Source of the DNA: a virus | DNA length: 14,035 nucleotides | IMG/VR virus record: IMGVR_UViG_3300005935_005627 | Span: 1-14,035 of that record | Direction: 5' to 3' (one strand) | Shown: positions 83 to 11,350 of the stretch, piece by piece | Layout: every line of letters starts with the position of its first letter | Position numbering within the stretch: position 1 is the first letter of the stretch | Position numbers and translations under genes: made by a program | Notes under the pieces: model-generated | Told to the model about the DNA's origin: nothing | What the model saw: the letters and a program-made list of their open reading frames with translations, nothing else | The model's database searches: none

Positions 83-108
83 GGTTTCTCTATATGAGAA
101 ACTTTTGT
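83..108 (+). terminator. Intrinsic terminator-like hairpin (GGTTTCTC-TATAT-GAGAAAC) followed by TTTTG/T-run; ends an upstream gene lying outside or at the edge of the window
   Basis: Perfect 7-8 bp inverted repeat with a 5-nt loop, immediately followed by a T-rich run. The same hairpin+T-run architecture recurs at 2593, 4086, 8299 and 11305. Confidence 0.5.
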
Positions 109-116
109 TATTTTAG
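103..116 (+). promoter_or_regulatory. Recurrent TTTTGTTAT(A/T)TTA promoter-like motif (copy 1), about 50 nt upstream of the MVP-like gene
   Basis: TTTTGTTATTTTAG here. Near-identical TTTGTTATATTA / TTGGTTATATTA copies lie at 4153, 8325, 9843 and 11335, each just downstream of a terminator or gene end and upstream of an ORF start. Confidence 0.4.
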
Positions 117-164
117 ATGTATATATTAAAATAGAGATTATTATTCACAAAAACAAATCATTTT

Positions 165-2582
165 ATGGAACAAGGTAGAACAGGAGATCTAGTATTACCA
201 CAAGGAACATATGTACATATTCTTGAAGGGGCGACCGGACAAGTTGATGTAATATCTGGACCTAATAAGACTAGCTTACCTGAGACAGATAAAACTGTCA
301 TTTACGAAAGGGAGTCCAGAAGGTTTTCACCAACAGGTGTTGATCGGGCTATCCGAGTATGTCCAACAGCTGATGAAGGTCAATATCTTGTATTGACTAA
401 TCCTTCTGAAGATATGGAAGGTAGAACTCACCCAGCTAAAGGAAAGGTTAACACAGTGAAATTAAGCATTGGTAGTAAAATAAACATCCAAGGCCCTGAA
501 ACATTTTCACTTTTCCCAGGTCAAGTTGCTGACGTTATTGATGGTCACCAACTTAAATCTAACGAATATTTACTTATTCGTGTATATAATGAAAAGGAAG
601 CCAAGCAAAATCTCAAGAATGCTGTTGTACAAACTGCTGAAGGAGAAACTCAAAAAGGAAATCTTTTCGATAATAAAGAAATTGGAACTGGAAACCTTCT
701 TATTATAAAAGGTACTGACGTTTCTTTTTATATTCCCCCTACAGGTATTGAAGTACTTGAAGAAAATGGAAATTATACCAGAGATGCTGTAACTCTTGAA
801 AGATTAGAGTATTGTATTCTACTTGACCAAAACGGTGACAAACGTTATGTTAAAGGTCCTGATGTGGTATTTCCAAAACCTACTGAAACATTCATTGAAA
901 ATAAGAAGCAAAGGATTTTCCGAGCTATCGAATTGAATGAAAATATGGGTCTTTATATTAAAGTCATTGCTGAATATGAAGAAGATAAGAAAACTTTTAA
1001 AGCTGGTGAAGAACTTTTTATCACTGGTAAAGAACAAAAGATTTATTTCCCAAGAGCTGAGCATGCTATAGTAAAATATGGCCAAGAAGCTATCCATTAT
1101 GCAACTGCCGTACCTAAGGGTGAAGGACGTTACATCCTTGATAAAATCAATGGCGATGTTAAATTGGTCAAAGGACCTAAGATGTTACTTGCCGACCCAA
1201 GGTCTGAAGTAATTGTAAAGAGAGTATTGAACACAAACACTGTTGGACTCTGGTTCCCAGGAAATGAAGAAGCTCTTCGTTATAATCTTAACTTGAATGA
1301 AGAACTTGAAGGTACTGAAAATGATTACCTTGAGGATTATTCATCAAGAAGCTTTACCGCAAGGACTAAGCAAACTCTTATTGCTTCAGCAGCTGCTGGA
1401 ATGATGTCAGAAGAACTTGAAAGGAAAACTAATTATACCAAGCCACGTATCATTAAATTGGATACGAAATATGAGGGCGCAGTTCTTCTTAATATCTGGC
1501 CAAACCATGCTGTACAGGTTGTGGATAAGCAGGGTATGAGAAAAGTTGTTGAAGGACCAAAGGTTGTTATGCTTGATTATGACCAAACTCTTGAAGTTCT
1601 TTCTCTTTCAACCGGAAAACCAAAGACTGATCATGATTTAATGAAAACAGTCTATCTTCAAACTAGAAATAATGTCGTTTCTGATATTATCACAATTGAA
1701 ACAAAAGATCTTATTAATGTAGATGTCCGTCTATCTTATAAAGTTAATTTCGAAGGTGATTCTACTAAATGGTTTAATGTTTCTGATTATGTTAAACTTC
1801 TTTCTCAACATATGCGATCACTTATTCGTAATGCGGTTAAGAAATTAACAATTGAGGAATTCAATAACGGTGCAACTGATATCATCAGGAATTGTATCCT
1901 AGGATCATCCAAAGAAGGTAAACGCAAAGGAAGATCTTTTGATGAAAATGGTATGAAGATTTATGATGTTGAAGTTTTAAACTTAAATATTGGAGATCAT
2001 GATATTGCTAGTATGTTGATTGATAATCAACATGATACAGTTGAACAGAATCTTAAAATTGCTCAGCTTGAAAAAGCTTTGGAATATACCAAGAAGAAAG
2101 AAGGACTTAAACGTTTGGAACTTGATGAGAAGTTAGTAACTTCCAATAAGGAAACTGAAGTAGCTCTTAAACAACTCGGTAATGAAAATTCCGTTGATGT
2201 ATCTGAACAATCATTATCTGCAGGTCTTGAAAAAGATAGGTTAACTGCAGAAAATGATAATCAAAAGACAATTGATAGTGTTGCGGCTTCTAAGCTTAAA
2301 AGAGATAAAGCAAACGAAGATACAAGGACAACAATTGATCAACAACGTTCAGCTATTAAAACTGAAGCGTATGAAAAAGCTATGGCAGCATTTACTCCTC
2401 GATTAATTGAAGCTCTTATTGCTCAAGGAAATGTTAAATTAGCTGATACTCTTGCTAAAAATCTCAAATCTCAAAAGGGTGGAGCTTTTGGTAAAGGTGG
2501 AGGAATGAGAGAAATTCTTGAAACTATAGGAGATGGCCCATTAAAAGGTATCTTTGAAAAACTTCAAGATAGTGTTGACTAA
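165..2582 (+). CDS. Major vault protein (MVP) homolog, 805 aa. It has N-terminal vault repeat domains with GP motifs, a shoulder-like region and a C-terminal coiled-coil cap-helix-like region.
   Basis: Colinear similarity to remembered mammalian MVP. N-term [21 protein letters not shown] vs MVP [21 protein letters not shown]. Repeated xGPxxV repeat motifs ([32 protein letters not shown]). [42 protein letters not shown] vs MVP [68 protein letters not shown] vs [25 protein letters not shown]. C-terminal heptad-rich segment ending [32 protein letters not shown] vs MVP [33 protein letters not shown]. Promoter-like motif upstream and a strong terminator downstream. Confidence 0.8.
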   Translation: [805 protein letters not shown]

Positions 2583-2592
2583 TCTCTATTTA

Positions 2593-2628
2593 AGAACAGT
2601 TTCCTTCGGGAGACTGTTCTTATAATTT
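2593..2628 (+). terminator. Rho-independent terminator after the MVP-like gene
   Basis: AGAACAGTTTCC-TTCG-GGAGACTGTTCT forms a 12-bp stem (one G-U wobble) with a UUCG tetraloop, followed by TATAATTT. Confidence 0.7.
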
Positions 2629-10965: not shown

Positions 10966-10979
10966 CACATACACATATT

Positions 10980-11291
10980 ATGAAAATTACATTTATTAAA
11001 TTTATTTTGTGGTTCTATACCAACCATATTCAAGAGGATTGGTCGGATTACAATAAAATAGGAAAAATTATTATTTTTCCTGCATGGTTTGTTCGATCCG
11101 TTGTATTTTGGATCGTATGTCCACTTTTTATTCCGGAATATATGTTTAAACAAAGTGAAGTTTATCATGCTTTTGAACAACAAGGCAAGCTTACTCCACA
11201 ACAAATGGCAGAATTTAACAAAATTCAAAAGCAAAATTTCCTTAATAAGAAATATGGAAAGAATGGTCAAGGTAACAAACTAAATAAATAA
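10980..11291 (+). CDS. Small membrane protein, 103 aa
   Basis: Hydrophobic stretches FIKFILWFY and IIIFPAWFVRSVVFWIVCPLFI. Gln/Lys-rich tail. Confidence 0.45.
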   Translation: MKITFIKFILWFYTNHIQEDWSDYNKIGKIIIFPAWFVRSVVFWIVCPLFIPEYMFKQSEVYHAFEQQGKLTPQQMAEFNKIQKQNFLNKKYGKNGQGNKLNK

Positions 11292-11304
11292 TTTTAACAA
11301 AAAA

Positions 11305-11338
11305 TTAATACAGAAAATGGCATCTGTGTTAATTTTTT
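11305..11338. terminator. Bidirectional intrinsic terminator between convergent genes
   Basis: TTAATACAGA-AAATGGCA-TCTGTGTTAA forms a 10-bp stem (one G-U). TTTTTT follows on the + strand and TTTTTTGTT on the - strand. Confidence 0.6.
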
Positions 11339-11350
11339 GGTTATATTAAT
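11335..11350 (+). promoter_or_regulatory. TTTTGGTTATATTAAT promoter-like motif (copy 5), pointing toward the 3' end of the minus-strand endonuclease gene and on toward pncA
   Basis: Same motif as the other four copies, again fused to a terminator T-run. Confidence 0.3.

Follow-up and report, generated by a model that had tools for sequence, protein, structure and literature searches.

The stretch of DNA analysed here (the window; 14,035 nucleotides, positions 1 to 14,035 of IMG/VR virus record IMGVR_UViG_3300005935_005627, with coordinates counted from its first letter) contains ~30 genes, all but one of them on the plus strand. A vault-protein-like gene is found together with lipoprotein-like genes, two PTH2 segments, a dCMP deaminase, an NAD synthetase, a nicotinamidase (pncA) and three homing endonuclease genes, and start codons are preceded by A-rich sequence without a Shine-Dalgarno motif. 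The element under study is a sequence that recurs at gene junctions in the window, TTTGTTATATTA, which a preliminary description had read as a promoter, possibly of a phage-specific class, placed at five junctions where one transcript ends and the next begins. The same DNA is present within a 40-kb ENA contig, of which 30.4 kb was read (loci L004 and L007; window position 1 is L004 7634), and the longest contig on record with proteins of this phage is 57 kb. A megablast of the whole window against a phage DNA database gave no match. The deposited phages nearest to it by the vault-like protein are uncultured genomes of 462-735 kb, at ~50% identity, and for phage genomes of this size class Bacteroidetes hosts were predicted by their authors (PMC7162821).

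Exact matches to (T/G)GTTATATTA were found at 4156-4165, 8328-8337, 9846-9855 and 11339-11348, all on the plus strand and all intergenic, as compared to a mean of 0.23 in dinucleotide shuffles (four or more in 0 of 200 shuffles). The fifth copy of the preliminary description, at 107-115, reads GTTATTTTA, with one mismatch and without the upstream boxes. A longer bipartite pattern, TTTTTTCGTGTC-N9-(T/G)GTTATATTAT, is exact at 4135-4166 and 9825-9856 (0 expected by chance) and also fits 8307-8338 with three mismatches; the box shared by the copies at 4135 and 9825 is therefore real but not special to them, the fixed-distance block being general to the larger module described below. Recurrence of TAGATTAA was not significant alone (3 versus 1.8 expected). 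Stable hairpins were predicted at 77-109 (-15.4 kcal/mol), 4086-4115, 8298-8323 (-19 kcal/mol) and 11298-11339 (-18.4 kcal/mol), each with z < -4.5. The copies and associated elements are as follows.

77-132, plus strand: degenerate copy 1 (assignment uncertain); hairpin 77-109, then TGTTATTTTA at 106-115 and a second candidate box, TATATATTAAAAT, at 120-132
165-2582: vault-protein-like gene, with its ATG at 165, downstream of copy 1
4086-4115, plus strand: separate intrinsic-terminator hairpin, AAAAAAGGGGAA...TTCCCCTTTTTT, which closes the upstream operon and is not contiguous with the motif
4117-4165, plus strand: cassette b, complete, no internal hairpin; AAAATAAAT at 4117-4125, TTTTTTCGTGTC at 4135-4146, core TGTTATATTA at 4156-4165; orthologous cassettes at L002 1893 and L105 86
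8289-8337, plus strand: cassette c, with built-in terminator; hairpin 8298-8323, its T-run serving as spacer; block 2, TTTTTTAGTCTC (8307-8318), forms the hairpin loop and 3' arm; core TGTTATATTA at 8328-8337
9807-9855, plus strand: cassette d, complete, no hairpin; block 1, AAAATAAAT, at 9807-9815, block 2, TTTTTTCGTGTC, at 9825-9836, core GGTTATATTA at 9846-9855; orthologous cassettes in L077, L049, L043 and L019
11298-11348, plus strand: copy e; A/U-rich hairpin 11298-11339 running into core GGTTATATTA at 11339-11348
12048-12060, plus strand: TATATATTAAAAT, identical to 120-132, ending 1 nt before the pncA ATG

The next ATG after cassette b lies at 4195, 29 nt past the core, and a start site near 4167-4171 is predicted. 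The ATG at 8342 is only 4 nt past the core of cassette c, which predicts a leaderless transcript. Block 1 of cassette d includes the TAA stop of the dCMP deaminase gene, and the following ATG (9879) is 23 nt past the core. Because TATATATTAAAAT is identical at 120-132 and 12048-12060, it is ambiguous which sequence represents copy 1.

The window motif corresponds to the 3' block of a three-block module with the arrangement AAAATAATT, N9, TTTTTTnnTnnC, N9-10, (T/G)GTTATATTA. Numbered from the G of GTTATATTA, the module comprises an A-rich block, AAAATAA(T/A)T, at -40 to -32; a T-tract block, TTTTTT(T)-n-T-n-Y-C, at -22 to -11; a T-rich spacer; and (T/G)GTTATATT(A/t) at -1 to +8. About 100 distinct copies were collected from metagenomic and IMG/VR phage contigs. 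The exact bipartite pattern had no match in IMG/VR and a degenerate pattern was needed, which returned 89 metagenomic stretches (~70 distinct), about ten of which look like chance matches inside genes. In the remaining copies, AAAATAATT at -40 to -32, the T-run and a downstream gtacTATAATTAAA are conserved beyond the pattern; a downstream TATAATTAAA and, in many copies, a hairpin 5' arm pairing with the upstream box are likewise conserved without being imposed by it. A separate search that required only AAATAA of block 1 and TTATATT of the core recovered 53 additional copies, and the middle block reappears in them, with T at -22 to -16, T at -14 in 42 of the 53 and C at -11 in 47; the core G is less fixed (29/53). 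Similarity between copies is limited to about -63 to +16, with unrelated flanks, and upstream open reading frames (ORFs) stop at -64 to -36, never inside the module bar one likely spurious exception. The idea that block 1 merely reflects the stop codons of upstream genes was rejected, as the two coincide in 5 of 91 stops.

Further copies, all intergenic and on the plus strand, are present on the window's own contig: L004 2496 and contig position 22452, and two weaker matches, L004 2327 and L004 5424. In total, the 30-kb contig has 7-9 copies on the coding strand, while its sole minus-strand match is inside a gene and without an upstream box. More generally, where small accessory genes are clustered, a copy of the module turns up every few hundred bases. 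A pattern scan of 185,579 prokaryotic species at one genome each (596 Gb) yielded two matches, in Bacteroidota metagenome-assembled genomes, and both were rejected as host copies since they lie within opposite-strand ORFs and are attributable to chance. The lack of a genuine copy in prokaryotic genomes indicates that the composite module is a feature of phages and not of their hosts. A blastn search of the consensus cassette against the phage database returned only noise and Kayvirus late-promoter matches. The module is not carried by two more distant relatives found through the vault-like gene, L001 (63% identity) and L003/LR756500 (51%), so the module family is narrower than the distribution of that gene. 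As a separate observation, L004 2327-2400 contains a cassette variant, TTTTTTTATCCC-N10-GTTATTTTA, and after it the perfect palindrome GTTGTTAAAACATGTTTTAACAAC, with the next cassette ~170 nt further on; the segment possibly represents a small RNA or a transcription unit of very short length.

Several properties of the module point to a transcription start signal. Every copy is co-oriented with the gene that follows it. Measured from the box's last A, the position of the ATG of the first long ORF has a bimodal distribution, with 4-8 nt in 12 cases from ~8 unrelated gene families, mostly 15-34 nt otherwise, no ATG at 9-14 nt and a median of 23 nt over all copies. Such a distribution is expected if transcripts start a few bases past the box and have either no leader or one long enough for ordinary initiation. 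The short distances are not an artifact of start-codon choice: homologous N-termini (MEKIVCAAIW, MEKIICSAIW and MEEKIICSAIW) begin 4, 7 and 8 nt past the box, indicating that those starts are real. Orthologous junctions have also kept their cassettes in relatives with 50-80% protein identity and different adjacent genes, namely before PTH2 (window, L002, L105), before a 72-aa gene and NadE (window, L077, L049, L043, L019) and before a radical-SAM operon (contig, L077, L071). In comparison, the canonical host box TAnnTTTG occurs no more often in the window than expected (19 versus 21.9) and none of its plus-strand matches there is intergenic ahead of a plus-strand gene, leaving the module as the only recurrent intergenic signal.

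Some copies have no downstream ORF. One of these, a cassette-like copy with its core at L004 5424, heads a 2.2-kb ORF-free stretch ~1.2 kb upstream of the window, in which a large non-coding RNA was identified ~500 nt downstream of the copy.

L004 5931-6416, plus strand: GOLLD RNA (RF02032, 154.7 bits; gathering score 150), with a tRNA-like match at 6005-6074 inside it

L044 and L068 likewise have cassettes with a related sequence downstream of them. Copies without an ORF, including that of the GOLLD stretch, indicate that the signal is transcriptional and not translational. Taken together, the bias in strand and position, the constant distances between blocks, the retention of copies at orthologous junctions, the start-codon distances and the copy in the non-coding-RNA stretch uphold the promoter reading of the preliminary description. 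We consider it probable (roughly 0.78) that the motif is the -7/-10-type box of a ~50-nt modular promoter used by a sigma-A-type holoenzyme, with an optional terminator. On this reading the module marks transcription-unit starts in a widespread group of uncultured large Bacteroidota phages; it is a known kind of phage regulatory cassette, from an apparently undescribed family, and involves no new mechanism. In the proposed sequence of events, the module would be bound by an RNA polymerase holoenzyme whose sigma factor is of the Bacteroidota sigma-A type, either the host's own or a phage paralogue, and transcription would begin ~2-6 nt past the final A, with a purine at 5-6 nt as the commonest position, giving either a leaderless mRNA or an A-rich leader of ~10-30 nt without a Shine-Dalgarno sequence.

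Relatives also encode a Ro/TROVE-domain protein. An ORF-free stretch ~1 kb upstream of the Ro/TROVE gene in L105 contains two cassette-like boxes without following ORFs, which are candidates for Y-RNA-like genes. The segments concerned are L105 5369-6099 and 7084-8763, L002 7131-7260 and L048 1841-3550.

The terminator component is optional. In the interval from block 1 to the box, ~38% of copies have a predicted fold of -12 kcal/mol or lower, and ~60% have no hairpin. The commonest stem class is (A/G)nCCGAGATT/AGTCTCGGn(T), in which the stem top and loop are invariant because they are the T-tract block. At the stem base, compensation is apparent (CG 20 and GC 16 at one pair; CG 34 and UA 4 at another), and 97% of cells are paired as compared to 24-53% when the partner is slid by 1-3 columns. 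A second hairpin class, GTTGGGATTA/TAGTCCCAAC, pairs in a different register. The hairpin thus appears to be an optional overlay on a sequence-constrained promoter, the same situation as described for the promoter-early stem-loops (PeSLs) of T4-type phages (PMC2839356). The hairpin's 3' arm would be the T-tract block and its U-run the promoter spacer, an overlap through which one compact unit would end the upstream transcript and start the next. In the window, a stem-loop followed by a U-run, as in intrinsic terminators, is found at 8298-8323 (T7) and 4086-4115 (T6), while the hairpins at 77-109 and 11298-11339 have A/U-rich stems with U's inside the stem and are weaker terminator candidates.

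These results sustain the termination-reinitiation layout of the preliminary description, with hairpin covariation among the evidence, and alter several of its details. A hairpin whose T-run flows directly into the motif describes 8299-8338 accurately; it fits only loosely at 83-116 and 11305-11350, where the T's belong to the 3' arm of an A/U-rich stem and no T-run is free, and it does not describe 4086-4166, where the hairpin and motif are separated by 40 nt that hold the other two promoter boxes. The reported lack of a hairpin at 9825-9857 agrees with our folding of 9805-9857, in which none was found.

Homing endonuclease genes lie close to two of the window copies.

4195-4938, plus strand: first unit after cassette b; an HNH-NUMOD3 homing endonuclease ORF (4297-4938) joined in frame to a duplicate of part of the PTH2 5' end (4195-4296), which has a TAG in frame
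4942-5283: complete PTH2 gene
11361-12038, minus strand: GIY-YIG/NUMOD3 homing endonuclease gene, between copy e and pncA

The PTH2 duplicate amounts to 34 codons of the N-terminus, MT*INHKLIIITRRDLHPGYQAVH, and in L105 the same cassette stands ahead of an intact, uninterrupted PTH2; the unit at 4195-4938 looks like a homing event within the PTH2 5' end. L077 has no endonuclease gene and there the core GTTATATTT is located 25 nt before the pncA ATG, an arrangement indicating that the endonuclease gene inserted between promoter e and the pncA operon. Copy e would accordingly be the promoter of the pncA operon, now separated from it. In the window, the TATATATTA box (12048-12056) within TATATATTAAAAT ends 5 nt before the pncA ATG, and 12048-12060 is possibly a replacement box of the leaderless type acquired after the insertion.

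An alternative is that the module is not a promoter at all but a terminator-associated sequence, a target for homing endonucleases or recombination, or a small mobile intergenic repeat. Of the contig's four homing endonuclease genes, three are no more than 150 nt from a copy, gene content varies beside cassette c, and many copies contain a terminator, all of which would suit a non-promoter element. Nevertheless, ~60% of copies lack the hairpin, all are strictly co-oriented with the downstream gene at a tight, bimodal ATG spacing, and the three blocks are held at fixed spacing without terminal repeats or target duplications. A role in recombination is moreover compatible with promoter function and not an alternative to it (PMC2839356). 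A non-promoter origin is therefore very improbable.

Given a promoter, the question becomes which polymerase reads it. Bacteroidota sigma-A (sigma-ABfr) promoters consist of a -33 TTTG and a -7 TAnnTTTG element, and in Flavobacterium johnsoniae the -7 element is near-invariant at T-12, A-11, T-8, T-7, T-6 and G-5, lies 4-5 nt from the start and is accompanied by AT-rich motifs at -18 and -28 and a weak -33 element (PMC6847099). Aligned by its TA, the window box TATATTA(g) retains T-12, A-11, T-8 and T-7, the predicted start of the module is also a few nt past the box, and the T-run lies near -18 and the T-tract block at -28 to -36, T-rich sequence occurring one and two helical turns upstream; in module numbering, T-rich tracts at -7 to -2 and -22 to -14 fit the -18 and -28 positions of F. 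johnsoniae. On the other hand, the window-clade box has A at -6 and a variable -5, and the extra blocks (T7-A-T-n-Y-C and AAAATAATT) and the (T/G)G extension are absent from the host consensus. After TATATTA the four window copies continue with T, G, T and A, respectively, and agree with TAnnTTTG at 4 or 5 of its 6 conserved positions; over the whole set of copies, T is seldom found at -6, and -5 is G in ~50%. The resemblance to the Bacteroidota -7 element is thus real but partial, and the earlier statement that the motif does not obviously resemble the -33/-7 consensus is correct only in part. The same module carries a canonical TATATTTG box in related huge-phage contigs; in IMG/VR contigs of 343-348 kb (L150, L202/L205), TTTTTTTATCCC-N10 is followed by CTTATATTTG, an exact TAnnTTTG.

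It is possible, though offered tentatively, that these are early promoters read by the unmodified host sigma-A holoenzyme, with the extra blocks acting as UP-like or spacer enhancers as in the T4 PeSLs. The module maps onto the F. johnsoniae promoter at TA (-12/-11), TT (-8/-7) and the AT-rich -18 and -28 positions (PMC6847099), the canonical TATATTTG box exists in some relatives, copies precede early-type genes and are dense in small-gene regions, and the PeSL precedent relies on host sigma-70 (PMC2839356). Such a reading is less easily reconciled with A in place of T at -6 in most window-clade copies, with G-5 in only about half, or with the missing -33 TTTG, and a phage targeting the host enzyme would be expected to lie closer to the host consensus, not further from it.

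The only literature match to the 10-mer TGTTATATTA is the late promoter of Staphylococcus Kayvirus, in which this sequence is a long -10 box without a -35 element, transcription starts 6 bp downstream and recognition is attributed to a phage sigma factor (S. aureus Kayvirus; PMC7698491). The identity raises the alternative of a late-type promoter read by a Kayvirus-like sigma or by a phage RNA polymerase unrelated to sigma-A. Exact TGTTATATTA occurs at 4156 and 8328 in the window, with GGTTATATTA at 9846 and 11339. However, Kayvirus late promoters have neither -35 nor UP elements and serve structural genes through the Kayvirus sigma (PMC7698491), whereas the module has conserved upstream blocks and precedes accessory-type genes (DNA ligase, helicase-methylase, Ro/TROVE, RNA ligases and NAD salvage), none of them structural. 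No detectable homologue of the Kayvirus sigma (L108 31258-31920) or of T4 gp55 was found in the loci searched, which cover the genomes incompletely. The identity is also one of consensus only, as the core G is present in just 29 of the 53 copies found without forcing the core, and both boxes are near the generic extended -10, TGnTATAAT. The shared 10-mer is probably a convergence on an extended -10-like sequence, and a Kayvirus-type sigma or an unrelated phage RNA polymerase as reader is a very unlikely explanation.

To look for a dedicated sigma factor, all loci were searched with RpoD regions 2-4. A sigma-70-family gene was identified at L114 3836-4699 (E 8e-22; Pfam regions 1.2 and 2), in a 207-kb contig with four variant cassettes of which 12 kb of sequence was covered. 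Its homologues, sigma-A-like proteins of ~285 aa encoded on large contigs, form a family; they are ~37% identical to Flavobacteriaceae RpoD/SigA, and their regions 3 and 4 are mostly unrecognised by Pfam. Members (e.g. L121 10001-10864 and L150 10001-10885) occur in at least 218 IMG/VR stretches, L121-L208 among them and including contigs of 340-520 kb, and several of the genes adjoin a divergently oriented ClpP-like protease gene. Cassette arrays lie within 10 kb of the sigma gene in 6 of 88 sigma loci (1.55 Mb), as compared to one match in a shuffled control: L121 has 4 cassettes, L128 5, L129 4, L150 4 by strict count and 8 visible, and L202 and L205 2 each by strict count and 3 visible. 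No cassettes were found in L140 and L141, the sigma-bearing relatives nearest by shared proteins. Relative to host RpoD, region 2.4 of the phage sigmas is changed from WWIRQS to W[F/H]IRKE, and the region 4.2 recognition helix differs in several. These changes and the nearby arrays fit a phage paralogue with altered specificity, the evidence being circumstantial. Over-represented words were also noted in these loci, with AACGTTCC/GGGAACGTTGAC occurring 10-14 times in 20 kb of L150 and GGGTCTCTG 9 times in L128.

Not far short of even odds is the view that the module is a phage-specific class of middle-type promoter, read only by polymerase carrying the phage sigma-A paralogue and ignored by the host, which would come into use once the phage sigma has been produced. 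It would account for the alteration of box positions that are near-invariant in the host (PMC6847099), for the T-tract block and (T/G)G extension without host counterpart, and for the lack of a genuine copy in 185,579 genomes, and it agrees with the presence of the ~285-aa family on large phage contigs, arrays a few kb away in six loci, the differences from host RpoD in region 2.4 and, in several, region 4.2, and an L121 sigma gene without a cassette upstream of itself. Less consistent with it are the early or accessory nature of the downstream genes (ligase, NAD salvage, nucleotide metabolism, small ORFans), the failure to find a sigma gene in the fragments of the window's phage, the canonical host-type box in L150 and L202 despite their sigma genes, and the 82 of 88 sigma loci without a cassette within 10 kb. 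The reader of the module would thus be either host sigma-A or a phage sigma-A paralogue, with the case for the latter being circumstantial. One conjecture, which we put forward tentatively, is that the sigma-A paralogues, a family widespread on phage contigs of 50-500 kb, and the three-block promoter have co-evolved, giving large Bacteroidota phages a private regulon on the host core polymerase. If true, a shifted box (TATATTA versus TAnnTTTG) together with an upstream block read by a diverged region 4 would separate phage from host transcription, and the private regulon would be one of built-in terminators, many leaderless mRNAs, and GOLLD and other non-coding RNA products.

Against the interpretation of the module as a sigma-A-type promoter stand several points. 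Copies 1 and e have no recognisable blocks 1 and 2. The -33 TTTG element is not matched, the T-tract being without G in most copies with only a few reading TTTTTTTGTTTC, and host sigma-A may read the box poorly given the change of T-6 to A and G-5 in only about half of copies. No sigma gene was found in ~30 kb of the window's own phage, and only 6 of the 88 sigma-A-like loci have cassettes within 10 kb. Start sites are placed from start-codon positions alone: ATGs 4-8 nt past the final A require a start at most 3-7 nt past the 8-nt box, and the ATG at 4 nt would put it 1-2 nt closer than the 4-5 nt of F. johnsoniae. Finally, a conserved TATAAT-like element at +13 to +18 could be a second, downstream -10 box. 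As the true -10 of the module this element was rejected, because 12 start codons lie at or before it; it could nevertheless be a second promoter.

Other features of these genomes were noted alongside the cassettes. Upstream of the window is a tRNA array, with 7 tRNAs in L004 (16-7187) and ~20 in an overlapping IMG/VR contig (L112 1449-8265); a large array of this sort is typical of very large phages. A further tRNA lies in the window itself.

5991-6064: tRNA with a CUA anticodon (amber suppressor type); relatives at L105 1631-1707 and L002 3750-3823

An in-frame TAG near the 5' end of PTH2 is conserved (window 4948-4950; codon 11 in L105), and together with the conserved CUA tRNA suggests either that TAG is a sense codon or that PTH2 expression depends on suppression. 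Ahead of a 105-aa gene, the intergenic segment 5535-5636 consists of two 51-nt tandem repeats that are 90% identical, the first with a perfect 13-bp palindrome, TGAACATAGACAT/ATGTCTATGTTCA, and the second with an imperfect version; the pair could be an operator or other binding site. Between the window and ENA contig k141_754490 there are 2 differences up to 13829 and 57 in the last 206 bases (13830-14035), which looks like a strain-level variable segment or a recombination boundary. The cassette-bearing contig L033 encodes an 802-aa ORF resembling a secreted metalloprotease (reverse strand, 6630-9038), the C-terminus of which, in our reading, resembles a type IX secretion sorting domain, and a TonB-dependent receptor gene is found at L007 17918-19876. 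Along with the lack of Shine-Dalgarno motifs, these two genes point to Bacteroidota hosts.

To our knowledge, almost nothing is known of the promoters of uncultured large or huge Bacteroidota phages. A 50-nt consensus with ~100 instances could be used in such contigs to delimit transcription units, predict 5' ends and locate non-coding RNA genes, as with the GOLLD RNA downstream of a copy, and the cassettes are templates for testing whether huge-phage sigma-A-like proteins redirect the host polymerase. Leaderless translation is also predicted here in a phylum whose mRNAs mostly have leaders. The possible pairing of the module with the huge-phage sigma-A paralogues is the aspect most worth pursuing.

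Two systems of T4-type phages invite comparison. In T4 middle promoters, a MotA box centred at -30 lies ~12 bp upstream of the -10 element. The module is similar in geometry alone, with a block that ends 12 nt before the TATATT hexamer and replaces the -35/-33 element, and the sequences are unrelated; no MotA or AsiA homologue was seen, no search having been aimed at them. A closer parallel is provided by the PeSL cassettes (Arbiol et al. 2010, PMC2839356; Comeau et al. 2014, PMC4122927). Both are composite intergenic modules of ~50-100 bp with an AT-rich upstream region and two promoter boxes, both have a stem-loop terminator inside or overlapping the promoter (here as read from sequence), and both occur in many copies ahead of small ORFan or accessory genes. 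The features that define a PeSL, a repeated intergenic promoter module with AT-rich upstream sequence and a stem-loop within the promoter, are thus found here, while as to a T4-like background, gp55, the one T4 core gene looked for, had no homologue in the loci. The module further differs in lacking a sigma-70 -35/-10 consensus and a Shine-Dalgarno sequence, in belonging to another phage lineage and host phylum, and in having a hairpin that is optional (~38%) and mostly in one register. In T4-type phages, related genomes differ in gene content at the PeSLs themselves, and the same may hold for the module. The genes after the orthologous cassette c are not the same in L043, L049, L050, L073, L104 and L105, and cassettes have been gained or lost around the deaminase-NadE junction, the relatives being too divergent for crossovers to be mapped. 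Changes of gene content beside the module suggest that it is probably also a recombination substrate, as PeSLs are in T4-type phages. The module is, by analogy, a functional counterpart of the PeSL cassettes, and extends the idea of compact promoter-terminator cassettes as gene-shuffling units beyond the T4-type phages.

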